Below, in pieces: positions 2,629 to 29,216 of a DNA stretch of 32,000 nt (within the stretch, counting starts at the first letter, position 1; each line of letters starts with the position of its first letter). This DNA is from Candidatus Electrothrix sp. GW3-4 (GTDB lineage: Bacteria; Desulfobacterota; Desulfobulbia; Desulfobulbales; Desulfobulbaceae), in contig NZ_CP147990.1 of the NCBI RefSeq assembly GCF_037902255.1, positions 930,001 to 962,000 of the forward strand, written 5' to 3'. The notes under the pieces are model-generated. The model was not told where the DNA came from and ran no database searches. It was given only the letters and a program-made list of their open reading frames with translations. A program made the position numbers and the translations under genes.

Positions 2629-3087
2629 TTGAAAGAGGATTTCATGCCAAAAAAATACATTGTCCAATTGACTCCAAAAGAACGCTGTCATTTACAGGAG
2701 GTTATCAAAAAGCTTTCGGGGGGCAGCCAAAAAGTCCGTCGTGCTCACATCTTATTGAAAGCTGATGCAAATGGCCCCTGTTGGAAAGACAGCAGGATAG
2801 CAGAAGCATTCAACTGTAGGACAAAAACGGTTGAGAACATCCGTCAAAATTTTGTTTTGCACGGTTTTCAACAGGCTCTTGACGGAAAAAAACGTGCAAC
2901 CCCGCCTACTCCGAAACTATTGAATGGGGAGCAGGAGGTTAAAATCATTGCCACTCGTCTTGGTTCACCTCCGCCGGGATACGCAAATTGGTCACTGCGC
3001 CTTTTAGCCCGACATGTTGTTGAATTGGAAATAGTTCCGTCGATCAGCCATGAAACTATTCGCCAAGTAATAAAAAAAACGGGATGA
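2629..3087 (+). CDS. IS630-family transposase OrfA (HTH DNA-binding part)
   Basis: 152 aa, MPKKYIVQLTPKERCHLQEVIKKLSGGSQKVRRAHILLKAD..., matching the winged-helix/HTH N-terminal half of IS630 transposases. It ends VIKKTG* with a TGA overlapping the orfB ATG. Confidence 0.85.
   Translation: MKEDFMPKKYIVQLTPKERCHLQEVIKKLSGGSQKVRRAHILLKADANGPCWKDSRIAEAFNCRTKTVENIRQNFVLHGFQQALDGKKRATPPTPKLLNGEQEVKIIATRLGSPPPGYANWSLRLLARHVVELEIVPSISHETIRQVIKKTG
3072..3079 (+). promoter_or_regulatory. Probable -1 programmed frameshift site (A8 run) joining orfA and orfB
   Basis: The site is ATAAAAAAAACGGGATGA. orfB (codon phase of 3084) is -1 relative to orfA (phase of 3085). The -1 frame is open across the run (NKKNGMNN). 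A slip gives ...RQVIKKKNGMNNRKIQYWVIPP, which resembles the contiguous KKN-x-KPW-x-WxIPP junction of fused IS630 transposases. Confidence 0.55.
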
Positions 3088-3779
3088 ACAACCGGAAAAT
3101 CCAATACTGGGTTATTCCACCAAAACACGATGCGGAATTCGTGGCCAACATGGAAGATGTGATAGAGGTTTATGAAAGACCGTATAATCCTAATCATCCT
3201 TTTCTTTGTATGGACGAACAACCAGTTCAGCTGATAAAGGAAACTCGTTTACCTATCCCGGCAACTATAAATCATGCTAAACGCGTTGATTATGAGTATG
3301 AGCGTAACGGAACAGCCAGTATTTTCATGTTCACCGAGCCTCTTTCAGGCTGGCGTGAAGCCACAGCTCGTCCTCGGCGGACTAAAACAGATTGGGCGAT
3401 CGAAGTGGCTCGCCTCCTTGAAGGTCGCTATGCAGAATGTGAAAAGATAACGTTGGGTTGCGATAATCTCAACACCCATACAAAGGGAGCTTTTTATGAG
3501 GCTTTTCCTCCTGAACGTGCTCGTGCATTAGTACGCCGGATTGAATTTTGTTACACACCGAAACATGGTAGCTGGCTCAATATAGCAGAAAACGAATTGA
3601 GCTCCATGACTCGACAATGTCTTGCCAATCGTCGTATAGGAGATATCGAGACGTTACAGAAAGAGATTGCCGCATGGTCAAGCGATGTGAATAACACTCA
3701 ACGTGGTGTTGAGTGGCAAATGAAAATTTCTGATGCCCGTTGCAAATTAAAATCCGTTTACCCTAAAATTAAGTCGTGA
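3084..3779 (+). CDS. IS630-family transposase OrfB (DDE catalytic part)
   Basis: 231 aa with LCMDEQP, LGCDNLNTH and SWLNIAENELS, the DDE_3-like triad context. Confidence 0.85.
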   Translation: MNNRKIQYWVIPPKHDAEFVANMEDVIEVYERPYNPNHPFLCMDEQPVQLIKETRLPIPATINHAKRVDYEYERNGTASIFMFTEPLSGWREATARPRRTKTDWAIEVARLLEGRYAECEKITLGCDNLNTHTKGAFYEAFPPERARALVRRIEFCYTPKHGSWLNIAENELSSMTRQCLANRRIGDIETLQKEIAAWSSDVNNTQRGVEWQMKISDARCKLKSVYPKIKS

Positions 3780-7293: not shown

Positions 7294-9162
7294 ATGTGCG
7301 GGATAAGCGGGTTTAACTGGAATGATGAGGCCCTGATTCGGGCCATGACCGATACCCTGGAGCATCGAGGCCCAGACCAGCAGGGCCATTTCTGCTCGGA
7401 CAAGATGAGTCTGGGGTTCCGGCGACTCTCTATTATTGATCTCAGTGAAAACGGGCGCCAGCCCATGTTCAATGAAGACGAGACCGTGGCCCTGGTCTTT
7501 AACGGCGAGATCTATAATTTTCAGGAGCTGCGCAAAGAGCTGAAGGATAAGGGCCATGTTTTTCGTAGTAAGGCCGATTCCGAGGTTATCCTTCATGGCT
7601 ATGAGGAATGGGGTGTGGATGTCATCCATCGGCTGCGGGGCATGTTCGCCTTTGGCCTTTATGATATACCCCGCAAGCGCCTGCTGTTGGTCCGGGACCG
7701 CATCGGTATCAAGCCGCTCTATTATACCTACAAGGACGGGCGCCTCCTCTTTGCCTCGGAGATCAAGGCCATTCTGGAAGACCCGCAGGTGGAGCGGCGG
7801 ATCAACTACCAGGCCATGTACGATTACCTGGGCTTTGAGTTCGTGCCTGCGCCCCAGACCATGTTCGCGGATATCCATAAGCTGCCTGCCGGGCATATGC
7901 TGGTCTTTGAGAACGGCGCCATCCATGAGGAACAGTACTGGGATCTGCACTTCCATCCCGGAGAAAATAAGCTCTCTTTTGATGAGGCCGTGGAAAAGAT
8001 GCGCGAGCATCTGGACTATGCCGTGTCCAGTCACTTGGTCAGTGATGTGCCGTTGGGGGTCTTTCTCTCTGGTGGGCTGGATTCCAGCTGCCTGGTCGCC
8101 CTGATGCGTAAGCATCTGACCGGCTCCTTTAAGACCTTTACCATTGGCTATGAGGACAAGACCTTTAGTGAGCTGGATTACGCCCAGGTCGTGGCTGATC
8201 ATTGCCAGACCGATCACCAGGTCCTGGTCCTGGATACCCTGAAGCCGGAGTACGTGGAAAAGACCCTCTGGCATTTGGATGAACCCATGACCGATCTCTC
8301 CACTGTGCCCCTCTACCTCCTCTGTAAGCAGGCCCGGGAGCACGTCACGGTCTGTCTTTCCGGCGAAGGGGCGGACGAGAGCTTTGCAGGTTATGACCGC
8401 TTCAAGGCCAGCCGCATGAGCAGGTGGTTCAACCTGATGCCCGGCCCGCTGCGCAAGCAGGTGGTTGGTCGCCTTACGGCCATGTTGCCGGATCAACCGC
8501 AGAAGAAGGGGGCAATCAATATGCTCAAGCGCTTTGTTGAGGGCGCGAACCTGGATCCGGCAGGACAGCATCTGCGCTGGCAGTACTTCTTTAATGCTGT
8601 GCTGGAGGCCAATCTCCTCCAGAGCGGCTTTCGCAGCAAGGTTGAGCTGGATCCGTTCCGACAGCTCCGGGACTATAATGCCCGTTGTGATGCGGGCAAG
8701 GACCGGGTGAATCAGGAGATCTACCTGGATATGCGCTTTATGATGACCGACTCGGTGCTGATGAAGGTGGACCGGATGTCCATGGCCAGCTCCCTGGAGG
8801 TCCGGGTGCCTCTGCTTGACCATGTGTTGGTGGAGTTCATGGCCTCCCTGCCCGGCGACTGGAAGCTCAAGGGCATGACCACCAAGTACATCTTTCGCGC
8901 CGCCCTGGAAGGGCTGCTGCCGGATAAGATCGTTAACCGGGGTAAGCAGGGCTACAGCCTGCCGGTCAAGCATCTCCTGCGCGGGGACCTGAAGCAATAC
9001 ATGATCGAGTTGCTCAACGATTCAACCGTAATCCGGGAAAATATGGATCAGAGCTATGTCAAGCGGCTGATTGATGAGCATTGTAGCATGCAGCAGAACC
9101 ATAACCATGTGCTCTGGGCCCTGATCAATATTGCTATCTGGCATAATCGATTTTTTAACTGA
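7294..9162 (+). CDS. asnB: Asparagine synthetase (glutamine-hydrolysing)
   Basis: 622 aa. It has N-terminal MCGISG (Cys2 Ntn amidotransferase), RGPD, the SGGLDSS PP-loop, and a C-terminal synthetase domain. Confidence 0.9.
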   Translation: MCGISGFNWNDEALIRAMTDTLEHRGPDQQGHFCSDKMSLGFRRLSIIDLSENGRQPMFNEDETVALVFNGEIYNFQELRKELKDKGHVFRSKADSEVILHGYEEWGVDVIHRLRGMFAFGLYDIPRKRLLLVRDRIGIKPLYYTYKDGRLLFASEIKAILEDPQVERRINYQAMYDYLGFEFVPAPQTMFADIHKLPAGHMLVFENGAIHEEQYWDLHFHPGENKLSFDEAVEKMREHLDYAVSSHLVSDVPLGVFLSGGLDSSCLVALMRKHLTGSFKTFTIGYEDKTFSELDYAQVVADHCQTDHQVLVLDTLKPEYVEKTLWHLDEPMTDLSTVPLYLLCKQAREHVTVCLSGEGADESFAGYDRFKASRMSRWFNLMPGPLRKQVVGRLTAMLPDQPQKKGAINMLKRFVEGANLDPAGQHLRWQYFFNAVLEANLLQSGFRSKVELDPFRQLRDYNARCDAGKDRVNQEIYLDMRFMMTDSVLMKVDRMSMASSLEVRVPLLDHVLVEFMASLPGDWKLKGMTTKYIFRAALEGLLPDKIVNRGKQGYSLPVKHLLRGDLKQYMIELLNDSTVIRENMDQSYVKRLIDEHCSMQQNHNHVLWALINIAIWHNRFFN

Positions 9163-9531: not shown

Positions 9532-10422
9532 TTAGGCGGTCAACCGCTCCTGGGCCTCTTTATAACGGGCAGCAGTCTTCTCCACGATCTCTGCGGGCAG
9601 AGGCGGTGGGGGCGGTTGCTTGTCCCAATCCAAAGAGGAGAGATAATCCCGCAGAAACTGTTTGTCAAAGCTGGGCTGTCCCTGGCCTGGTTTGTACTCA
9701 TCCATGGGCCAGAACCGGGAAGAATCCGGGGTCAGGACCTCATCAATCAGGATCAGTTCACCATCGGCCATACCAAGCTCGAACTTGGTGTCCGCAATAA
9801 TGATCCCCTTGCTCCGGGCATATTCAGCAGCCTTCTCGTACAGCCGAACAGAGATGTCCGCCATCTTGTCTGCGACCTCCTTGCCCACGATTTCTTCCAT
9901 CTTGGCCACAGAGATGTTTTCATCGTGCAGCCCCTGTTCCGCCTTGGTGGACGGGGTAAAGAGCGGCTGGGGAAATTTATCCGACTCCTGCATGCCTTGA
10001 GGCAGGGCAAAGCCACAGACCGTGGTGTCTTTCTTATAGGCTGACCAGAAAGAACCGGAGATGTAGCCCCGGACAATGCACTCAATGGGCATAACCTTGG
10101 TGCGGCGCACCAGCATGGAGCGGCCTTCCAGCTGCTCCCGATATTGGTGGCAAACCTCTGGGTACTGCGCAACATCAGCAGAGATCAGGTGGTTGGGCAC
10201 GATATCAGCCAGCAGGTTAAACCAAAACAGGGAAATCTGGGTCAGGACCTTACCCTTGTCGATAATGGGATCATCCATTACCACGTCATAGGCAGAGATC
10301 CTGTCCGTGGCGATCATGAGTAGTTTGTCCTCATGACCGGGGATTTCGTACATATCGCGAACCTTGCCGCGATGGAGCAGATTCAGTTCCGGCAGGTCAG
10401 TCCGGATAACAGGGTTACTCAT
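9532..10422 (-). CDS. purC: Phosphoribosylaminoimidazole-succinocarboxamide (SAICAR) synthase
   Basis: 296 aa, with [12 protein letters not shown]...[16 protein letters not shown]...[10 protein letters not shown]. Confidence 0.92.
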
Positions 10423-15907: not shown

Positions 15908-17209
15908 TTACTTGGTCATGAAGTCAGCGTAGGCATGAGATCCGTGCTCGCCGTAATCCAGCCCCTCAATCTCTTCCTCTTCGGTAACCCGGAGGCCAAC
16001 GGTCATTTTGATGACGGTGAAGAGGATGAACGCGCAACCGAAGCTCCAGGCAAAGGCCGCACCAATACCGATCAGCTGGGTGGTGATGATCTTGGCAGTT
16101 ACCCCTTCCATATTGAACAGGCCCGCAGCCAGGGTACCCCAGGCGCCGCAGACACCGTGGACAGAGACCGCACCCACCGGATCATCAATGTGCATGCGAT
16201 CGATGATGACCACCGAGAGGACCACCAGGACACCAGCGATTGCACCGATAATGGCAGAGCTGGTCGGGCTGACATTGGCACAACCGGCAGTGATACCGAC
16301 CAGGCCAGCCAGGGCACCGTTAAGGCTCATACTGATATCCGGCTTCTTAAACATAACCCAGGAGGTGAGCATACCGGTAACGGCTCCGGCACAGGCAGCC
16401 AGATTGGTGTTGACAAAGATCATGGCGATGTCGGTGATGCCAGCGGTGGTGGAACCGGGGTTGAAGCCGAACCAACCCAGCCAGAGGATAAAGACGCCCA
16501 CAGCTGCCAGCGGGATGTTGTGACCAGGGATGGCCTTTACTTCTCCTTTTTTACCATACTTTCCTACGCGCGGTCCGATAACAATGGCACCGGCCAGGGC
16601 GGCCCAGCCACCGATGGAGTGAACAACCGTGGAGCCAGCAAAGTCGATGAAGCCCATACCTTCGAGCCAACCACCACCGTGGAACAGGCTGCCCCAGGCC
16701 CAGCTCCCGAATACCGGGTAAATAAAGGCGCAGAGTGCCGCGCTGTAGATCAGGTAGCTGGTGAATTTTGTCCGCTCAGCCATTGCCCCGGAAACGATGG
16801 TAGCAGCTGTTGCGGCAAAAACACACTGGAACATCCAGAAGGCAAGGACCCAAGGATCACCGCCAACCTTGAAATCGCTGAGGAAAAAACCGTCGGTTCC
16901 GAACCAACCTGTACCGCTGGTCCCGAACATCAGGCCAAAACCGATGGCCCAGAAGAACAGAGAACCCATGCTGAAGTCCATCAGGTTCTTCATCATGATA
17001 TTAATGGCGTTCTTGGCCCGGGTAAAACCGGCCTCAACCATGGCAAAGCCAGCCTGCATAAAGAAAACCAGGGCGGCAGCGACCAAGGTCCACACGTAGT
17101 CAAGGTTGGTCTGTACACCCTGGGCAGTGGGCTCGTCACCAGCACCAGCAAGGGTTGGTAACAGAGAGAGAGCAAGCAGGGCTCCGGTTAGCAGCGTTTT
17201 TTTCTTCAT
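15908..17209 (-). CDS. amtB: Ammonium transporter
   Basis: 433 aa from ATG 17209 (RBS AGGTGAG); the track ORF uses GTG at 17218. It has a signal peptide, then LDYVWTLVAAALVFFMQAGFAMVEAG, and is polytopic throughout. Confidence 0.93.
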   Translation of the reverse strand: MKKKTLLTGALLALSLLPTLAGAGDEPTAQGVQTNLDYVWTLVAAALVFFMQAGFAMVEAGFTRAKNAINIMMKNLMDFSMGSLFFWAIGFGLMFGTSGTGWFGTDGFFLSDFKVGGDPWVLAFWMFQCVFAATAATIVSGAMAERTKFTSYLIYSAALCAFIYPVFGSWAWGSLFHGGGWLEGMGFIDFAGSTVVHSIGGWAALAGAIVIGPRVGKYGKKGEVKAIPGHNIPLAAVGVFILWLGWFGFNPGSTTAGITDIAMIFVNTNLAACAGAVTGMLTSWVMFKKPDISMSLNGALAGLVGITAGCANVSPTSSAIIGAIAGVLVVLSVVIIDRMHIDDPVGAVSVHGVCGAWGTLAAGLFNMEGVTAKIITTQLIGIGAAFAWSFGCAFILFTVIKMTVGLRVTEEEEIEGLDYGEHGSHAYADFMTK

Positions 17210-17245
17210 TATTCTCACCTTGTTTCTATATATCCTAAGAAAAAA

Positions 17246-17419
17246 TTATATGGTTTTTCGACTTTTCATAAAAAAGATCAAGGCACCGGCGATCAGATTC
17301 CAGATATAATCAAGATTCGTCTGTACAGTCTTCGCAAGGGATTCATCAGCAGGAGCAACAAGGGTCGGTACCAGCGCCAAGGCAATCAGGATTCCTGTTA
17401 TCAGATTCATTTTGTTCAT
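17246..17419 (-). pseudogene. Truncated paralogous amtB 5' fragment (57 codons)
   Basis: Not in the ORF track because it is under 60 aa. Minus-strand translation gives MNKMNLITGILIALALVPTLVAPADESLAKTVQTNLDYIWNLIAGALIFFMKSRKTI*. It aligns with amtB residues ...LLTGALLALSLLPTLAGAGDEPTAQGVQTNLDYVWTLVAAALVFFMQAG. It has a good RBS (GGAG at 17428-17431). Confidence 0.7.
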
Positions 17420-17473
17420 TTTCTTTCTCCTTCACCGAGCAAACAGTGCCTTTGTTCTCTTCTTTTGGCGATG

Positions 17474-17944
<471 letters not shown>

Positions 17945-18695: not shown

Positions 18696-18953
18696 TCACT
18701 GCGGGCGGCTGACGCATTCATACCTCCTTGGAATACCCTTGCTCCTCTTGCCACCAATGACCTTGATGACTTGGCCGATATCACAGCTGCCGTCATTTTC
18801 TACATACACAATTTGCTTATAAGATAGGGTGTACTTCGCAGGTATTTTTTTCAGGATCTTGTTGCGACTGTCCTGCTGACATCCTGTCAGGAAGAGCATG
18901 ACGAGAGGGATGAGCGCTGCATTCGATAGGAAGCACTTCATTGCGTTTTCCAT
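18696..18953 (-). CDS. Small lipoprotein
   Basis: 85 aa from ATG 18953, which is 1 nt after the radical SAM stop, with RBS AGGAG. MENAMKCFLSNAALIPLVMLFLTGC contains the lipobox LTGC. Confidence 0.65.
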   Translation of the reverse strand: MENAMKCFLSNAALIPLVMLFLTGCQQDSRNKILKKIPAKYTLSYKQIVYVENDGSCDIGQVIKVIGGKRSKGIPRRYECVSRPQ

Positions 18954-18954
18954 C

Positions 18955-20829
18955 TCAGGTGTTCTCCTGCCAATAGAACTCGATATTCTGAAAGGGTAAA
19001 TTGATCGCCTGGAGATGATAAAAGGCGTTCTTGCGGTGCTTGCTGTAATGATATTCCCGCAAGGCCTTGGTGGTGATGAAGAAAATATTCCGCACGCCAT
19101 CTATATAGAATGGGGCATGACTGATCAGTAGCTGGGAGATATCCAGCACCGCATAGTTCCCTTCCTGTTGGGCAGCAGCAAGAAAGGCATTTCTGTAGAG
19201 TGAATAGTCAAAGATATGTTCCTGCTTGCTGCGCTGCTCATCGCCATAGACCACGGTGGTATCCCGCAGGAGCATCAGATGAACATAGTTATTGATTTCA
19301 TCGTCGCAGGCAAGGCGGAACACATCCTCACGTACTCCCAGCAGGACCGCACTGCTCTGGTCCAGTACCTCAATATCCATTTCATTTTTCAGGATTGCCG
19401 AGTGCAGACGGTATTCCACTCCGTTTATCCGCAGAAAGAAGAGCTCGTTGCTGTACAGGGCCTGGAGTTTTGCATCACGGCGGATGATCTCATGCAGAGT
19501 ATTGGTGTCAGCAAAGAGCTCCGGGCTGATGACCCGTTCCTTTTTCGTGTAGGGCTGTTTCAGCTTTTTCAGATTATTATTGAGGAAAAGGCGTTGTGCA
19601 TAAGCGGTGATTCTCTCTGGAGGCAGAGGAGGCCAGCGGTCCGGCGCATCCTGATAGAGCTGCTTTTGCAGCAGGCAGGTGTAGCTTTTTGTGAGCCCGG
19701 TTTCCTGGCGGACAAAGGTACAGCCCAGGTTGCAATGCGCTAGCCATGGGCAATGAGCGCAGTTGTCATCAATATCGAGCAGGTTTTCGTTACGCTCCAT
19801 CATATTCCAGCCATTGTCAATCACCGCCTCCACGCCATCTGTGAAGATATTGCCGTAGCGATATGCGGGTGATGACTGACCACGTGGGCAGGAAAAGACC
19901 TCGCCGTCAAACTGGAGCAGGAAGAACTTGCCCCCGCAGTTGACTGAGGAACAGCAATATTCCGGGGTGAACTCTTTGAACCACTCGGTGCGCAAGGCGT
20001 TTTCCAGGGGGGTACCAACAAAGGCCTTTTTCACCGCCTGATAGAATCGGACCTGTTCCGCATCGCTGAGCATGGCCGCCCCTTGGTCCTGTTGCTGAAA
20101 TTTACTTCTGTTTTCACCAGAGTCAAAACCGAACATGACGTTGAAGCGGCTCATGTCCAGGCCGATTTCATCATGGAGATGCCTGATCTCGGCAATGAAG
20201 TCATCAACCGCCTCTAAGTGGGCGCGGGTGACCACGCAGGAAATCTTCTTGTTATGGGGATAGGCGGCCAGCAGCTTAAGGTTCTCGCGGATCTGGTTCA
20301 AGGTCGAACGGCCTTGCTTGTCCCGGCGGAACTGCTCATGCAGGCGGAGGGGCAGATCCACGCTACCGCTGATCGAAACCCGGTGTTTGACAAAGACATC
20401 CCAATGCCGCTGAAAATCAAAGAGGTTGGTCTTGATATGCGGAGGGCTGACCCGGAAGCCCTGAGCCTTAATCTCCTCCCCATAGCTGGCGTAATGGCGG
20501 GCGGCAATGCTGAAGAGGCTGTCAAGCAGCTCTGAGGGAAGGGTGGTGACCTCTCCGCCATGAAAGGAGAGATTAAAGGGCAGGTAACCATGCGCCAGCA
20601 GCTGCTCCAGGGCCGTGTTCAGGGTGCCGAGCACCTTGTCCGGCTCTGGTCTGGCAGCGGTCAGGTCACCCAGATAGCAGTAGCGGCAGCTCATATTGCA
20701 GAATTTAGTCGGCACATAGAGCAGGTGGATAGCCTTGCGGAACGGGCTTGCGGTCTGATGTGTTTTCCGATCTGTTGGTGACGCCAGATCGACTGCTTCC
20801 TCCCGTGTATCAGCTTGTGTATCTGTCAT
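18955..20829 (-). CDS. Radical SAM/SPASM-domain enzyme with a ~220-aa C-terminal extension of unknown function
   Basis: 624 aa. Motifs: CNMSCRYCY (CxxxCxxC), SFHGGEVT, and the SPASM-like CCSSVNCGGKFFLLQFDGEVFSCP...YGNI...CAHCPWLAHCNLGC. The C-terminal third carries no motif I recognise. Confidence 0.85.
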   Translation of the reverse strand: MTDTQADTREEAVDLASPTDRKTHQTASPFRKAIHLLYVPTKFCNMSCRYCYLGDLTAARPEPDKVLGTLNTALEQLLAHGYLPFNLSFHGGEVTTLPSELLDSLFSIAARHYASYGEEIKAQGFRVSPPHIKTNLFDFQRHWDVFVKHRVSISGSVDLPLRLHEQFRRDKQGRSTLNQIRENLKLLAAYPHNKKISCVVTRAHLEAVDDFIAEIRHLHDEIGLDMSRFNVMFGFDSGENRSKFQQQDQGAAMLSDAEQVRFYQAVKKAFVGTPLENALRTEWFKEFTPEYCCSSVNCGGKFFLLQFDGEVFSCPRGQSSPAYRYGNIFTDGVEAVIDNGWNMMERNENLLDIDDNCAHCPWLAHCNLGCTFVRQETGLTKSYTCLLQKQLYQDAPDRWPPLPPERITAYAQRLFLNNNLKKLKQPYTKKERVISPELFADTNTLHEIIRRDAKLQALYSNELFFLRINGVEYRLHSAILKNEMDIEVLDQSSAVLLGVREDVFRLACDDEINNYVHLMLLRDTTVVYGDEQRSKQEHIFDYSLYRNAFLAAAQQEGNYAVLDISQLLISHAPFYIDGVRNIFFITTKALREYHYSKHRKNAFYHLQAINLPFQNIEFYWQENT

Positions 20830-20850
20830 TATCTCTTATTATCTGTCGTC

Positions 20851-21687
20851 TCACGCTGCGAACCACCAGAAGTAGAGCAGGAGCCCCACATTGAGAAGCA
20901 GAAAGGCTACTCGCATTATTTGGTTCCATGCGTCATTCCGGGCTGTTTGGATAATATTTCTTTTGAATTGAATGGCTTCCTTCTGAACAAGGAGGAAAGA
21001 GGGATATCCCAAACGGCGGGTCGGCCTGATGAAGAGGCGGCCATCCCGATTGCGGGTAAGCCTGCCTTGGGCGGTAACACGTTCGTTATGGAGGATAAAG
21101 TGCTCTGTGAGCTGATACTTTTTGTATTTGGTTTTATTCTGAACCTTGACCTGGGGCGGGCATTGCGCCTGGGTCTTTTCCTTGTTGTGGAGAGCGAGGG
21201 CGCTCTTGGTGAACTCATCAACCTGAATATAGACCCGGTGGTCCTTGTCTGCGAGTTCCACCTCGTCAGCAGACTGTTCACGGAGCAGTGGCTTGCGCAC
21301 GGTTTCCCAGCCTCTGCCCGGTTTTTTCGCTTTGACCTCCCATTCAGCAGCCACCAGCGCGCTGTAGTAAGCACACTCTTTGTTGCTCAAGGGCAGGCGC
21401 TGTGTCTGCCCCTCTGTTATCCTGCCTTTGAAGCGGACATAGCAGTCTGTCAGATCCGGGCTGAACGGTGCCGGATTTTCAGCCATCCAGGCCCTTCTTT
21501 TGAATACCCCGATTTTGCGCCATTGGCAGGAGGCTATGATCAGGAACAACGCTGGCAGGACGTACGGGAAGAGGATACTCGGCAACCCGCGTTCAGCACC
21601 GGGGGCGTTATGAGACTGCAAGCTGATGTATTGAAGGACTGCTGTGAGCAGAAGGAAAAGTATGCTTATGAATATGTTCGCGATCAT
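20851..21687 (-). CDS. Membrane protein: 2 N-terminal TM, ~190-aa soluble domain, C-terminal TM (possibly GIDE-like)
   Basis: 278 aa from ATG 21687 (RBS GGAGAA 8 nt upstream); the track ORF uses TTG at 21711. TM segments are IANIFISILFLLLTAVLQYI, ILFPYVLPALFLIIA and VAFLLLNVGLLLYFWWFAA. The core CYVRFKGRITEGQTQRLPLSNKECAYYSALVAAEWE recalls the GIDE-family pattern, recalled from memory only. Confidence 0.6.
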   Translation of the reverse strand: MIANIFISILFLLLTAVLQYISLQSHNAPGAERGLPSILFPYVLPALFLIIASCQWRKIGVFKRRAWMAENPAPFSPDLTDCYVRFKGRITEGQTQRLPLSNKECAYYSALVAAEWEVKAKKPGRGWETVRKPLLREQSADEVELADKDHRVYIQVDEFTKSALALHNKEKTQAQCPPQVKVQNKTKYKKYQLTEHFILHNERVTAQGRLTRNRDGRLFIRPTRRLGYPSFLLVQKEAIQFKRNIIQTARNDAWNQIMRVAFLLLNVGLLLYFWWFAA

Positions 21688-21707
21688 CGTAGCATTCTCC
21701 GGTTTCC

Positions 21708-22148
21708 TCAACCGTTATTTCCGTTGTTTCCGTTATTATTGTTGTTGTTATTGTTATTATTATTGTTGTTGTTATTGTTGTTACTGCTGAAGCCGGAATC
21801 CCAATAGATCCCTGTTGCCCCGCTATTCTTTTCTCCCTCCGGGCCGAGGTAGTAGAGCGGATCAATTCGGGTGATCCGTTTGCCGTCAAAGCGGAGATAG
21901 TCTGTGCCCTTAGCGCCGGGCAGCGTTTTTGCCGTGCTCATGCCATCAGTGGTAAAGAGATAGAGGGTATTATTGCGGAAGAGCACGTAAGGGTAGCGCC
22001 GCTCATAAACACGCAGATGATTGACAATGATATGCCGAGCCCTTGCTGTGTCTTTGATGCCAGTTTGGCGTAGATAGCTGCCCAGCTTTTTTTTCATTAC
22101 CTCCTCATCTTTAATCGCTGAGGATGATTCCATTTCCAGATTTATCAT
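21708..22148 (-). CDS. Hypothetical protein with a C-terminal poly-Asn tail (N17-GNNGNNG)
   Basis: 146 aa. It is the first gene of the operon and lies 20 nt upstream of the next gene. The tail is encoded at 21711-21782 by mixed AAC/AAT codons. Confidence 0.6.
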   Translation of the reverse strand: MINLEMESSSAIKDEEVMKKKLGSYLRQTGIKDTARARHIIVNHLRVYERRYPYVLFRNNTLYLFTTDGMSTAKTLPGAKGTDYLRFDGKRITRIDPLYYLGPEGEKNSGATGIYWDSGFSSNNNNNNNNNNNNNNNNNGNNGNNG

Positions 22149-22204
22149 GACGCGCTCCCCTGCGCTGGGAATGTTATGAGGGAAGAAAGTTTACCGAATA
22201 CCTT

Positions 22205-22233
22205 AGCGTAGGGAGGTGGAGGCTATTTGTCAA
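22205..22233 (-). promoter_or_regulatory. Sigma-70-type promoter of the poly-Asn/radical SAM operon
   Basis: The minus strand reads TTGACA (22233..22228), 17 nt, TACGCT (22210..22205), preceded by AT-rich CAATATATTATTC. It lies ~55 nt upstream of ATG 22148. Confidence 0.55.
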
Positions 22234-22417: not shown

Positions 22418-22750
22418 GCATTGAAGTGGCAGGCGACAGCCGTACCTAAAGGTGTTTTATACTGGGCACAGCTGATGTTTATATCATCCATCGCCATGAA
22501 GAAAACGTTGCTTCAATTCTCTGTCGTCCTTTTTCTCAGGCGACAAAACAGAACGGTCATGAACCGTTCCGTATGCATCATGACAAAGGCAAACCTTAGT
22601 TCAACTAAGCGGGTGCCCTGCTTTCCGATCGGAAACGGAAAGCTGATAAAGCCACAGCCGTCGCGAGGCGGTGTCGGAAAGCCACGGATCTCCAGGGAGG
22701 AGACAGCCGGGTTGCCTGCTTTACCTATAACCTATATCGGGAGGTATGTT
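22418..22750 (+). other. Long structured 5' leader; a possible riboswitch or cis-regulatory RNA, class not identified
   Basis: About 330 nt lie between the predicted promoter and the strong RBS/ATG at 22751. Stable hairpins: GAACGGT/ACCGTTC (22551-22569), CTTAG-TTCAA-CTAAG (22595-22609), GCTTTCCG/CGGAAAGC (22620-22643), and ACA(G)CCG/CGGTGT. The motif AAAGCCAC(A/G)G occurs twice. Confidence 0.3.
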
Positions 22751-23649: not shown

Positions 23650-25399
23650 CCCACATTCCGCACGTTGACACATAAAAAAATATTTTATAACCTGCTGCCT
23701 CAAAAAGACATTTAATAAATCAACCAGGCAGCAGGTATGGAAAACAACACAACGATTTTACCACAGGAATGCTCAAGTAAACTCCTCAATCACTTGGGCC
23801 TAGTCGCGGGTATGTATGACGAACTCGGACTTGGGGAGCTGATTGACAGTCTGATTCATCAGGATAAAGAAAAGCGAGTTGTCTCAGTTGGTCAGGCAGT
23901 TAAGGCAATGGTTCTTAACGGGTTGGGCTTTGCGAATCGGGCATTGTATCTGACCCCGCATTTTTTCCAGGATAAACCGGTAGATCGACTCATCGGAGAA
24001 GGCATTGAGGCCCAGCACCTGAACGATACTGTTTTGGGCCGGGCCTTAGAAGTGATTTACGAGCATAATCCCGAAGAGTTATATTCGCAGCTTGCAGCTA
24101 GGGCAATTGGTCGTCTAGGGCTGCTGGCACGTTTTGGTCACTTGGATTCAACGAGTTTTCATACCGACGGTCGCTATCCAGCCAACGGATCAGAAGAGGA
24201 AGAAGGTGTTATTCGGATCACAAAAGGCTACAGCCGTGATCATCGTCCGGATCTGAACCAGATCGTGTTGCAGCTCATTTGCGAACGACAGGCTGGCATC
24301 CCGCTTCTGATGAAGCCGTTAAGTGGTAACAGTAGCGATAAAACAGATTTTCGGGAAACAGTGCAAGCGCATATTGATCAGATGAAAAACGATTTCAGCC
24401 TGGAATATCTGGTTGCGGATAGTGCGCTCTATACAGCGCAAACATTAAAAGAACTGAGCATGATATTGTGGATTTCCCGTGTACCGGAGACATTGAATCT
24501 GTCCCAGGAGATCATCCATGAAGTAGCTTCAAATCTGATGCAGGATCCTGAAAAAGCAGCATCTCGCAGTCTCGGGGTAGTTTATGGCGATGTCAGGCAG
24601 CGCTGGTTGGTTGTCTATTCGCCTGAAGCATATCAACGGGGACGCAAGACCGTAAACAAAAAATGCCTCAAGCTGAGCACAAATGAATCCAAGCAATTCG
24701 ATAAATTGTGCAAACAGGATTTTGCCTGCGAGGCCGATGCATTGAAAGCACTGTCCCGTTTTGAAAAAAAGCTGAAAATACTCTCAATTCATGACGCTCG
24801 TGTTGTTGCTTTACCTCGCCATAAGGGCAAAGGACGGCCAGCCAAGGGCAAGAAACCGGACTTTTATGTTTACCGCATTGAAGGCAACCCAGCCTCCCTG
24901 CTTCAGGAGAGAACCCGATTGTTGGAACGAAAAAGCTGTTTTATTCTTGCAACGAATCAGTTGGACTGCGAAGAATTGTCCGACGAGGAACTCTTGAAAG
25001 TGTACAAAGATCAGCAAAAGGTTGAACGGGGTTTTCGTTTCCTCAAAGATCCTATGTTTATGGCTTCAACGCTTTTTTTAAAATCCCGAAAACGTATCAT
25101 GGCCCTGATGATGGTTATGACGCTTTGCCTCCTGGTGTACGCCGCGTTGGAATATCGCATCAGACAAGCGCTCGAAATAAATAATGAAACATTTCCCAAC
25201 CAGAAAGGAAAACCTGCCCCTAACCCTACTGCTCGTTGGGTATTTCAGTTTTTTTCAGGAATTCACCTGCTGCTTGTCGGCGGAATGCAACAGCTGGTCC
25301 TGAATTTAAATGAACATCATTTGCGTCTGCTGAAGCTGTTGGGTGGGAGATATGAAAAATTATATTCTGGAAATGGATAGAGGGTATGCTGAATGTGGG
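23650..25399 (+). mobile_element. IS1634-family (IS4-related) insertion sequence, 1750 bp
   Basis: Terminal inverted repeats are CCCACATTCCGCA (left) and TGCTGAATGTGGG (right), matching 12/13. A 6-bp direct repeat CCATGG sits at 23644-23649 and 25400-25405. It carries a single 547-aa transposase. Confidence 0.8.
23737..25380 (+). CDS. IS1634-family transposase
   Basis: 547 aa, with HLDSTSFHTDG...GYSRDHRPDLNQ...VADSALY...YKDQQKVERGFRFLK, motifs typical of IS1634/IS4-group DDE transposases. Confidence 0.8.
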   Translation: MENNTTILPQECSSKLLNHLGLVAGMYDELGLGELIDSLIHQDKEKRVVSVGQAVKAMVLNGLGFANRALYLTPHFFQDKPVDRLIGEGIEAQHLNDTVLGRALEVIYEHNPEELYSQLAARAIGRLGLLARFGHLDSTSFHTDGRYPANGSEEEEGVIRITKGYSRDHRPDLNQIVLQLICERQAGIPLLMKPLSGNSSDKTDFRETVQAHIDQMKNDFSLEYLVADSALYTAQTLKELSMILWISRVPETLNLSQEIIHEVASNLMQDPEKAASRSLGVVYGDVRQRWLVVYSPEAYQRGRKTVNKKCLKLSTNESKQFDKLCKQDFACEADALKALSRFEKKLKILSIHDARVVALPRHKGKGRPAKGKKPDFYVYRIEGNPASLLQERTRLLERKSCFILATNQLDCEELSDEELLKVYKDQQKVERGFRFLKDPMFMASTLFLKSRKRIMALMMVMTLCLLVYAALEYRIRQALEINNETFPNQKGKPAPNPTARWVFQFFSGIHLLLVGGMQQLVLNLNEHHLRLLKLLGGRYEKLYSGNG

Positions 25400-28065: not shown

Positions 28066-28524
28066 TTGAAAGAGGATTTCATGCCAAAAAAATACATTGT
28101 CCAATTGACTCCAAAAGAACGCTGTCATTTACAGGAGGTTATCAAAAAGCTTTCGGGGGGCAGCCAGAAAGTCCGTCGTGCTCACATCTTATTGAAAGCT
28201 GATGCAAATGGCCCCTGTTGGAAAGACAGCAGGATAGCAGAAGCATTCAACTGTAGGACAAAAACGGTTGAGAACATCCGTCAAAATTTTGTTTTGCACG
28301 GTTTTCAACAGGCTCTTGACGGAAAAAAACGTGCAACCCCGCCTACTCCGAAACTATTGAATGGGGAGCAGGAGGTTAAAATCATTGCCACTCGTCTTGG
28401 TTCACCTCCGCCGGGATACGCAAATTGGTCACTGCGCCTTTTAGCCCGACATGTTGTTGAATTGGAAATAGTTCCGTCGATCAGCCATGAAACTATTCGC
28501 CAAGTAATAAAAAAAACGGGATGA
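28066..28524 (+). CDS. IS630-family transposase OrfA
   Basis: The protein is identical to 2629..3087. Confidence 0.85.
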   Translation: MKEDFMPKKYIVQLTPKERCHLQEVIKKLSGGSQKVRRAHILLKADANGPCWKDSRIAEAFNCRTKTVENIRQNFVLHGFQQALDGKKRATPPTPKLLNGEQEVKIIATRLGSPPPGYANWSLRLLARHVVELEIVPSISHETIRQVIKKTG

Positions 28525-29216
28525 ACAACCGGAAAATCCAATACTGGGTTATTCCACCAAAACACGATGCGGAATTCGTGGCCAACATGGAAGATGTGAT
28601 AGAGGTTTATGAAAGACCGTATAATCCTAATCATCCTTTTCTTTGTATGGACGAACAACCAGTTCAGCTGATAAAGGAAACTCGTTTACCTATCCCGGCA
28701 ACTAAAAATCATGCTAAACGCGTTGATTATGAGTATGAGCGTAACGGAACAGCCAGTATTTTCATGTTCACCGAGCCTCTTTCAGGCTGGCGTGAAGCCA
28801 CAGCTCGTCCTCGGCGGACTAAAACAGATTGGGCGATCGAAGTGGCTCGCCTCCTTGAAGGTCGCTATGCAGAATGTGAAAAGATAACGTTGGTTTGCGA
28901 TAATCTCAACACCCATACAAAGGGAGCTTTTTATGAGGCTTTTCCTCCTGAACGTGCTCGTGCATTAGTACGCCGGATTGAATTTTGTTACACACCGAAA
29001 CATGGTAGCTGGCTCAATATAGCAGAAAACGAATTGAGCTCCATGACTCGACAATGTCTTGCCAATCGTCGTATAGGAGATATCGAGACGTTACAGAAAG
29101 AGATTGCCGCATGGTCAAGCGATGTGAATAACACTCAACGTGGTGTTGAGTGGCAAATGAAAATTTCTGATGCCCGGTGCAAATTAAAATCCGTTTACCC
29201 TAAAATTAAGTCGTGA
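28521..29216 (+). CDS. IS630-family transposase OrfB
   Basis: It differs from 3084..3779 at two residues: I62K, and G125V next to the second catalytic Asp. Confidence 0.85.
   Translation: MNNRKIQYWVIPPKHDAEFVANMEDVIEVYERPYNPNHPFLCMDEQPVQLIKETRLPIPATKNHAKRVDYEYERNGTASIFMFTEPLSGWREATARPRRTKTDWAIEVARLLEGRYAECEKITLVCDNLNTHTKGAFYEAFPPERARALVRRIEFCYTPKHGSWLNIAENELSSMTRQCLANRRIGDIETLQKEIAAWSSDVNNTQRGVEWQMKISDARCKLKSVYPKIKS

Follow-up and report, generated by a model that had tools for sequence, protein, structure and literature searches.

What does a radical S-adenosylmethionine (SAM)/SPASM enzyme do beside a protein that ends in a long run of asparagines? The question is raised by four consecutive minus-strand open reading frames (ORFs) at 18696–22148 of a 32,000-nt stretch of genomic DNA, referred to here as the window, from the cable bacterium Candidatus Electrothrix sp. 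GW3-4 (assembly GCF_037902255.1, contig NZ_CP147990.1, positions 930,001–962,000). The ORFs encode, in this order, the tailed protein (g1), a membrane protein (g2), the radical SAM enzyme (rSAM) and a small lipoprotein (g4), and had been singled out in an earlier note, read from the letters of the DNA, as an operon without a described counterpart. The locus probably encodes a two-component protein-modification system, made up of the radical SAM/SPASM enzyme and a carrier protein with a C-terminal Asn run. The Asn tail is most likely the enzyme's substrate, because such a run recurs beside the enzyme in all contexts, on carriers that are unrelated to one another.

The enzyme and its Asn-tailed neighbour

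In a collection with one genome per species, a pattern scan yielded 163 species with a relative of the enzyme. The 80 loci retrieved come from Desulfobulbia, Myxococcota, Gamma- and Betaproteobacteria, Campylobacterota, Geobacterales, Bacteroidota and Spirochaetota/Leptospirales; homologues of approximately 600 residues are spread over many phyla. Relatives of g1 were searched for with an iterative hidden Markov model (HMM) built from its N-terminal 120 residues, leaving out the tail, and a same-strand homologue, mostly adjacent to the enzyme gene, was found in 75 of the 80 genomes, which span at least eight phyla. Three of the five loci without one have too little flanking sequence. The 75 genome loci, the window and two duplicate loci together gave 78 tailed proteins, all encoded on the strand of the enzyme, at a distance of no more than 150 nt in 60 cases and with g2 or another ORF intervening where the gap is longer. 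Linkage is kept while gene order varies, from g1-g2-rSAM (the window and Pseudoalteromonas) to rSAM-g1-g2 (Thiothrix); g1 lies downstream of the enzyme gene in 66 of the 78 loci and, in subclade 2 of the family, is often the last gene.

When the proteins encoded within 5 kb of the enzyme gene were clustered over approximately 80 loci, the recurrent families were g1, g2, a protein with two transmembrane (TM) segments (the 2-TM protein) and a GNAT only; the next most recurrent family, of 300–940 residues, occurs in 17 loci. No conserved protease, transporter or exporter was found by this clustering. The conserved core is the pair of enzyme and Asn-tailed protein, and the other genes are accessory. 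The earlier note had treated the four genes as one system and proposed a neighbourhood analysis; the enzyme and g1 are indeed co-localized, but g2 accompanies them in 30 of the 80 loci and the lipoprotein in five cable-bacterial loci only, so that neither is a general component.

The C terminus of g1 reads SGFSS-N17-GNNGNNG. All 78 family tails contain a run of 7–21 Asn and close with Gly; the run is preceded by Ser in 63 of them, by Thr in five and by Cys in five. AAT and AAC codons are mixed in every one of the 78 tails, the longest single-codon run having a median of 3, which indicates that selection for the repeat acts on the protein, and that it is neither a chance feature nor the outcome of slippage or a DNA-repeat artefact. 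In an AlphaFold2 model of a 128-residue construct, residues 1–89 form two helices and five strands with predicted local distance difference test (pLDDT) values above 86, and the tail is disordered; the motifs RFDGxRIxRI and YYLG account for the invariant positions of the fold. The start codon, an ATG at 22148, is backed by the N terminus MINLEMESS..., which is kept in other cable bacteria. The g1 sequence has no match in Pfam, NCBIfam or PHROG, the profile has none among PDB sequences, and a Foldseek search of the fold against the PDB returned nothing at E ≤ 1e-3 (best TM-score approximately 0.3). As a separate observation, many g1 proteins of subclade 2, those of Geobacterales and Betaproteobacteria (L040–L082, for example L067 at 9840–10271) among them, carry a Gly/Ala-rich hydrophobic segment of 17–20 residues and a Lys/Arg-rich stretch directly before the Ser-poly-Asn tail, and may themselves be membrane-embedded.

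A run of Asn codons might also act in translation, sensing the supply of asparagine or nitrogen and so controlling the downstream genes. In the window, the operon is directly followed by genes for Amt and GlnK, with AsnB encoded approximately 10 kb off, and Amt or GlnK is also found near the system in two other loci (L023 and L049); such a neighbourhood is, however, confined to 3 of 81 loci. With g1 downstream of the enzyme gene in most loci, and often last in subclade 2, nothing would be left to regulate, and the terminal Gly and the Ser/Thr/Cys flank point to constraint on the protein. A sensor is therefore exceedingly improbable, and the link to nitrogen metabolism was dropped as a general explanation.

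The CxxxCxxC motif and the SPASM-type auxiliary cluster region that had been read from the enzyme sequence both stand. In an alignment of 20 diverse homologues, C48 and C51 are invariant and C44 is nearly so; the GGE SAM-binding motif, H90-G-G-E93, is invariant or nearly so in the family alignment, and nine of nine cysteines of the SPASM region are invariant, including C292/C293 and C385. The seven-cysteine SPASM motif is satisfied by C298-x10-G309-x4-C314, C357xxC360x5C366x3C370 and C385, and the number of cysteines would allow two fully cysteine-ligated auxiliary clusters. The SPASM-domain profile TIGR04085 gave 37.5 bits against a cut-off of 27. Pfam Radical_SAM gave 27.7 bits (E = 3.5e-6), just under its gathering score of 29.5, and 38.7–45.6 bits for phage members of the family.

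None of the NCBIfam equivalogs reaches its own cut-off for the window enzyme. The top match is DynA (NF041298; 86 bits against 450, E = 2.4e-24) and the second is the anaerobic sulfatase maturase anSME (TIGR03942; 78.5 bits against 349.45); PRK13758 gave 51.5 bits against 441, DarW (NF041300) 66 against 650 and DarE (NF038005) 49 against 650. The nearest NCBIfam families by sequence are maturases of proteins and peptides, namely DynA, anSME, DarW, PapB and the cyclophane formers, and the best solved relative is anSME (PDB 4k36, E = 4e-17, the match spanning the core and SPASM regions). The subfamily HMM search that the earlier note had called for thus assigns the enzyme to no characterized family, anSME included. 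Identity with DynA or DarE was rejected on these scores and on the neighbouring protein, which has no conserved aromatic core, and PADLOC gave weak viperin-core matches only, hence no evidence of a defence system. No PqqD or RRE domain was found in any of the four proteins with Pfam and NCBIfam. The profile phrog_1802, a phage 'radical SAM domain-containing protein' with no assigned function in PHROGs, aligns over positions 35–553 of 556 with enzyme residues 25–622 (E = 2.5e-49).

Beyond the SPASM region, the enzyme continues into what had been described as some 220 residues without a nameable family. This extension is a well-conserved domain restricted to this enzyme family, in which the motifs YGDExRxKQEH and NAFYHxQAINLPF are invariant. 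When 1.84 billion representative proteins were searched exhaustively with HMMER, it turned up in 80 representatives only, all of them radical SAM proteins of approximately 600 residues from the same family, or fragments. Its AlphaFold2 model (pLDDT 85) is a beta-rich fold, for which Foldseek found nothing in the PDB at E ≤ 1e-3 (best TM-score approximately 0.3).

The kinship with anSME suggests another target, the residue before the run: Ser or Cys would be oxidized to formylglycine or another carbonyl, with the Asn run as flexible or recognition context. The prevalence of Ser, with Cys and Thr in five tails each, recalls the Ser- and Cys-type sulfatases, anSME is both the best solved relative and the second-best NCBIfam match, and the cysteine count, like that of anSME, permits two auxiliary clusters with full ligation. 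The score, however, is far under the equivalog cut-off, and in the HMMER alignment to 4k36 (C276-D277 against C314-P315) the residue aligned to Asp277 of the C. perfringens enzyme, the proposed catalytic Asp that follows the second Aux-I cysteine, is an invariant Pro in the motif CPRGQS. The tails read S-N-N-N and lack the C/S-x-P/A-x-R motif, five of them have Phe or Ala before the run, no sulfatase family is conserved among the neighbour clusters, and the conserved long Asn run and terminal Gly would be left unexplained. Such an oxidation is improbable, and identity with anSME was rejected on the score, the replacement of Asp by Pro and the lack of a sulfatase or substrate motif nearby.

Phage relatives and the proposed reaction

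Phage and viral relatives of the enzyme share 28–40% identity with it and belong to phrog_1802. One was found by tblastn with the C-terminal domain in the Mu-like Campylobacter phage CAM-P21, in which the gene order is tail fibre (phrog_1162), DUF4376-type fibre chaperone (phrog_10241) and radical SAM enzyme; the DUF4376-type protein is known as a fibre chaperone (PMC11464564). The fibre ends in ...SGSTNNNNY, the sole run of at least four Asn in any frame of the phage. Directly after the enzyme gene (L083, 6569–7965) follow genes for a DUF1353/tail-assembly-chaperone-like protein (phrog_1158) and for another protein that resembles a fibre (phrog_5132/16233), and with genes of this kind on both sides the enzyme is embedded between two fibre–chaperone pairs. 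Neither g1 nor g2 nor the 2-TM protein is encoded by the phage relatives; in CAM-P21, HMMs of all three found no homologue.

The same arrangement was found in four further loci with divergent relatives, whose upstream proteins end in TSSNNNNNNRG, YNNNNNGNNH (borne by a fragment of a collagen-like fibre), GGGGHSGNNNSKCSG and GGGSGPNNNF; other phage and viral tails, SCNNNNN, FSN6LAGNV and similar, sit on fibre or small proteins. The Asn-tailed phage proteins are encoded two genes upstream of the enzyme, with a chaperone-like gene between. Among 17 full-length IMG/VR relatives, some of them near-identical, 13 loci have, in the ORF that precedes the chaperone-like gene, a run of at least three Asn among the 15 C-terminal residues, and Asn tails occur in 15 of the 231 ORFs of the viral loci, nearly all at this pre-chaperone position. 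Many phage carriers also have a hairpin-like motif (VVINGKAVTNW, FYINGK, KVNGVASNT) 15–35 residues before the Asn run, which resembles RFDGxRIxRI of g1. Together with the co-localization in 75 of 80 genomes, these tails on unrelated carriers strongly back the substrate role that had been suggested for the tail of g1.

They also bear on the possibility that the tail is a passive module for aggregation, tethering or prion-like behaviour, the enzyme acting elsewhere and g1 being an accessory or regulatory subunit. Poly-Asn tracts in eukaryotes are known to be aggregation-prone or phase-separating, and the g1 tail is predicted to be disordered. Yet the Asn tail is the sole feature common to the enzyme's neighbours in cells and phages, on carriers that are otherwise unrelated; the phage tails, with 3–6 Asn, are too short to aggregate, and the extreme C-terminal position and the flanking Ser/Thr/Cys and Gly are conserved. 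A passive role is decidedly improbable.

The layout of g1 is also that of a leader and core, as in a classical cluster for a peptide that is ribosomally synthesized and then modified post-translationally (RiPP). The N-domain of approximately 100 residues would then be a long leader and the poly-Asn segment a core that is modified, cleaved and exported as a bioactive peptide, with the membrane proteins and the GNAT in immunity or tailoring. A precursor-like gene does adjoin the maturase gene, the enzyme is nearest to RiPP maturases (DynA, DarW, PapB and the cyclophane formers), and varying accessory genes, here two unrelated membrane proteins and an Acetyltransf_3 GNAT, are typical of immunity and tailoring. 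A RiPP cluster nonetheless seems unlikely, as no protease or transporter is conserved among the approximately 80 loci, no RRE domain is present, the N-domain of g1 is confidently folded in its model, and the tailed protein of the phages is a structural tail fibre, which must stay intact.

In the two-component modification system that we favour, the enzyme would dock on the folded part of the carrier, probably via its own C-terminal domain, a route proposed because no RRE/PqqD-like domain is present, and recognition may depend on a conserved hairpin of the carrier, RFDG...YYLG in g1 and INGK-like in the carriers of phages. The disordered Asn tail would enter the active site, in which reductive cleavage of SAM would give a 5'-deoxyadenosyl radical that takes a hydrogen atom from a tail residue, the electron being handled by the two auxiliary clusters, apparently fully cysteine-ligated. 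The likeliest products would be a (thio)ether or C–C/C–N cross-link, or a dehydrogenation, at the beta- or alpha-carbon of Asn, with epimerization as an alternative. The modified tail would stay on the protein rather than be released as a secreted peptide, an outcome favoured by the lack of any protease or exporter conserved beside the two genes. In the window, the operon would add a membrane protein that tethers the complex to the inner membrane, as well as the cable-bacterial lipoprotein, and the phage relatives appear to use the same chemistry on tail-fibre tips.

Several points weigh against this proposal. Its support comes from sequence and genomic context, and it leaves without explanation why the cellular tails need 7–21 Asn and an invariant terminal Gly. 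Five of the 78 tails lack Ser, Thr or Cys directly before the run. Two loci, L029 (Ca. Electronema halotolerans) and L036 (a Desulfuromonadales metagenome-assembled genome), have the enzyme and no Asn-tailed protein within 8 kb, which may reflect loss, relocation or an assembly gap. Among the 17 IMG/VR loci, the tail ends merely in GNN-F/S in three and is missing from one (L103), and the likeness of the hairpin motifs was noticed post hoc. Campylobacter H-fibres, moreover, were functional when heterologously expressed with the chaperone alone (PMC11464564), which would count against the proposal if those particular fibres carry the tail or have the enzyme nearby.

A wider reading is put forward tentatively: radical SAM chemistry on homopolymeric Asn may be a previously unrecognized class of post-translational modification, such as iterative Asn cross-linking or rewiring of backbone and side chains, with the product kept on the protein. 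Bacteria of many phyla might use it on small membrane-associated proteins, and temperate phages to harden or functionalize receptor-binding fibre tips.

Operon layout, accessory genes and surroundings

The four genes and the intergenic gaps of 20, 21 and 1 nt (g1/g2, g2/rSAM and rSAM/g4) given in the earlier note were confirmed by ORF calling and translation (Table 1). Of the promoter proposed there, the sequence and the 17-nt spacing are present and the −35 element is perfect, but the −10 element agrees with the consensus at 3 of 6 positions (TAnnnT) and falls below the scan threshold; that the site is a real promoter is plausible. A scan found no terminator-like site 3' of g4 on the minus strand, and neither a riboswitch on the operon strand nor inverted repeats flanking the operon were found.

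Table 1. Operon features and neighbouring elements, in coordinates of the window
Feature	Position	Strand	Basis or remark
Promoter-like site: TTGACA (22233–22228), 17-nt spacer, TACGCT (22210–22205)	22205..22233	-	Read from sequence
g1, 146-residue carrier protein	21708..22148	-	Folded domain of approximately 90 residues, disordered linker, poly-Asn tail
Poly-Asn tail of g1, N17-G-NN-G-NN-G after Ser-Ser; proposed substrate segment	21711..21782	-	Translation
g2, 278-residue membrane protein, start ATG (MIANIF)	20851..21687	-	100% identical to annotated P0121 of GW3-4
rSAM, radical SAM/SPASM enzyme, 624 residues	18955..20829	-	ORF and profile matches
Radical SAM [4Fe-4S] motif CNMSCRYC (CX3CX2C), C44/C48/C51	20677..20700	-	Translation; family alignment
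SPASM region, residues 292–385, CC...C-x10-G-x4-C...CxxCx5Cx3C...C	19675..19956	-	Translation
Family-specific C-terminal domain, residues 395–624, approximately 230 residues, beta-rich	18958..19647	-	Alignment, HMMER, AlphaFold2
g4, 85-residue lipoprotein of family DUF6719	18696..18953	-	PF20477 match and lipobox
DDE_3 insertion sequence, first copy	2629..3779	+	
AsnB, glutamine-dependent asparagine synthase	7294..9162	+	
RVT_1/TIR protein, 532 residues	13052..14650	+	
Amt ammonium transporter, GlnK and the 57-residue ORF between them	15908..17902; 17246..17419	-	Directly downstream of operon
CxxCxxCC protein, 124 residues	18247..18621	+	PF03692, YkgJ-like
c-di-GMP-I-type riboswitch-like element	22642..22720	+	RF03167, E = 4.8e-11
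Third insertion sequence	23737..25380	+	DUF4277 and DDE_Tnp_1 transposase
DDE_3 insertion sequence, second copy	28066..29216	+	

The g2 protein has hydrophobic segments at residues 5–23, 34–52 and 260–278 (Kyte–Doolittle), with a central domain of approximately 200 residues between the two N-terminal and the one C-terminal TM segment; in most of its homologues there is a single hydrophobic segment at the N terminus and one or two at the C terminus, and their conserved motif is CYVKFxG...WxTKxKKPxKGMET. All of the 30 loci in which g2 adjoins g1 belong to subclade 1, with enzymes at least 50% identical to that of the window. In subclade 2, a protein of approximately 160 residues with two TM segments is encoded upstream of the enzyme in 29 loci, and in six loci an Acetyltransf_3 GNAT takes its place. 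Comparisons with hhalign among g1, g2, the 2-TM protein and the C-terminal domain revealed no relation (probability at most 2%), and g2 and the 2-TM protein are accordingly not detectably homologous. The positive-inside rule predicts a cytoplasmic position for the central domain of g2 and likewise for the C-terminal domain of the 2-TM protein, so that a cellular complex would be tethered to the inner membrane face. In the L036 locus, the 2-TM gene is split from the enzyme gene by two inserted genes. In that of Ca. Electrothrix sp. YB6, a close relative, an inserted 323-residue ORF separates g2 from the enzyme gene (L004, 7004–7975), which indicates that the operon tolerates insertions.

The likeness of g2 to the GIDE family, to which the earlier note had compared it, holds for the layout: GIDE proteins (MUL1/MAPL-type and bacterial TM-domain-TM) also have a domain of approximately 160–200 residues between TM segments. 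In the profile it stays below threshold: g2 scores 12.1–12.2 bits against 23.6 for PF12483, with a weak alignment over profile positions 13–133 of 160. It has no RING or other ligase domain. Three of 24 diverse members of the g2 family match GIDE weakly (best E = 0.033), making it the most frequent family jointly with DUF4131, also with three members. Precomputed Pfam annotation of 48 g2 homologues contains no domain, and the g2 profile has no match among PDB sequences.

The lipoprotein g4 matches PF20477 (DUF6719) with 35.5 bits against a cut-off of 27 (E = 8.8e-9). Its signal peptide, read by eye from the sequence, runs MENAMKCFLSNAALIPLVMLFL-TGC, with the lipobox LFLTG-C and a hydrophobic segment at residues 8–22. 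In each of the five cable-bacterial loci the gene stands directly after that of the enzyme, and it occurs nowhere else among the 80; L029, one of the two loci with the enzyme and no Asn-tailed protein within 8 kb, does have the DUF6719 lipoprotein.

Around the operon, the window contains several further elements. The CxxCxxCC protein, putatively zinc- or iron-chelating, is encoded convergently with the operon end and was absent near the system in the other loci examined. A 57-residue ORF between Amt and GlnK resembles Amt (phmmer E = 1.7e-15) and is possibly a remnant. Upstream of the operon, on the opposite strand, lies the intergenic riboswitch-like element, which scored 54.3 bits against a gathering score of 59; there is no convincing ORF between it and the insertion sequence that begins at 23737, approximately 1.5 kb upstream of the operon, and insertion of the latter may have orphaned it. 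The two DDE_3 insertion sequences are 99.65% identical over 1151 nt. The 532-residue protein, encoded in a low-GC stretch, combines an RVT_1 reverse transcriptase domain with a C-terminal TIR domain and may be a retron- or defence-like gene.

Comparison with known systems

The combination that the earlier note had called undescribed remains without a description in the literature that we found, and full-text searches returned no account of a radical SAM enzyme that has a poly-Asn substrate or belongs to a tail-fibre module. Pfam, NCBIfam and PADLOC hold no family for g1, g2 or this enzyme, PHROGs hold the enzyme as the unannotated phrog_1802 only, and the database homologues all bear the label of a hypothetical protein or of a generic radical SAM protein. 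Much of the new chemistry of peptides and proteins comes from radical SAM/SPASM maturases, and those that have been characterized all, to our knowledge, act on sequence-diverse cores. If the proposal is true, an enzyme family dedicated to a plain C-terminal Asn run would represent a new substrate logic and probably a new reaction, present in at least 163 species of the one-genome-per-species collection, including tractable members of Pseudoalteromonas, Psychromonas, Thiothrix and Trichlorobacter, and three unannotated protein families and one PHROG would gain a function. We know of no earlier case in which a radical SAM enzyme modifies a tail fibre; if confirmed, the phage branch would supply the first, with a bearing on host recognition and on the engineering of receptor-binding proteins, and modification of fibre tips would concern the Campylobacter H-fibres already in use in campycins.

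Like the enzyme family described here, anSME belongs to the radical SAM/SPASM enzymes and has no RRE, and its two auxiliary clusters have an apparent counterpart in this family. Its target is a Ser or Cys in a protein, not in a small peptide, and it lacks the extra C-terminal domain of 230 residues. DynA, DarW and DarE are likewise SPASM enzymes without an RRE, and are among the top NCBIfam matches. The dynobactin and darobactin maturases abstract hydrogen from side-chain beta-carbons of a neighbouring ribosomal precursor, and dynobactin contains a Trp-Asn link at a beta-carbon. Their cores are short and aromatic-rich, from heptapeptide to decapeptide, whereas the segment described here is an Asn homopolymer with no obligatory aromatic residue, and the window family differs from these maturases in its folded carrier of approximately 90 residues and in having its own C-terminal domain.

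In NHLP/Nif11-type RiPP precursors and their proteusin radical SAM epimerases, a conserved N-terminal part of approximately 100 residues likewise precedes a C-terminal segment that is modified by a radical SAM enzyme, and in proteusin-type systems the modification is repeated along the core. There is, however, no sequence or profile relation between these precursors and g1, whose alpha/beta N-domain has no match in the PDB, and the system described here has no conserved leader protease or exporter.

The closest phage counterpart is the H-fibre and DUF4376 chaperone module of CJIE1 and other Mu-like Campylobacter prophages, the same module that precedes the phage enzyme gene; the cellular system of the window has no phage genes and another carrier. 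The papers on Campylobacter H-fibres (PMC7882524, PMC11464564) mention neither a radical SAM gene nor an Asn-rich fibre C terminus. In kind, the system is thus a known one, a radical SAM/SPASM maturase with a dedicated ribosomal substrate; what is new is the type of substrate, the extra domain of the enzyme and the phage tail-fibre context.

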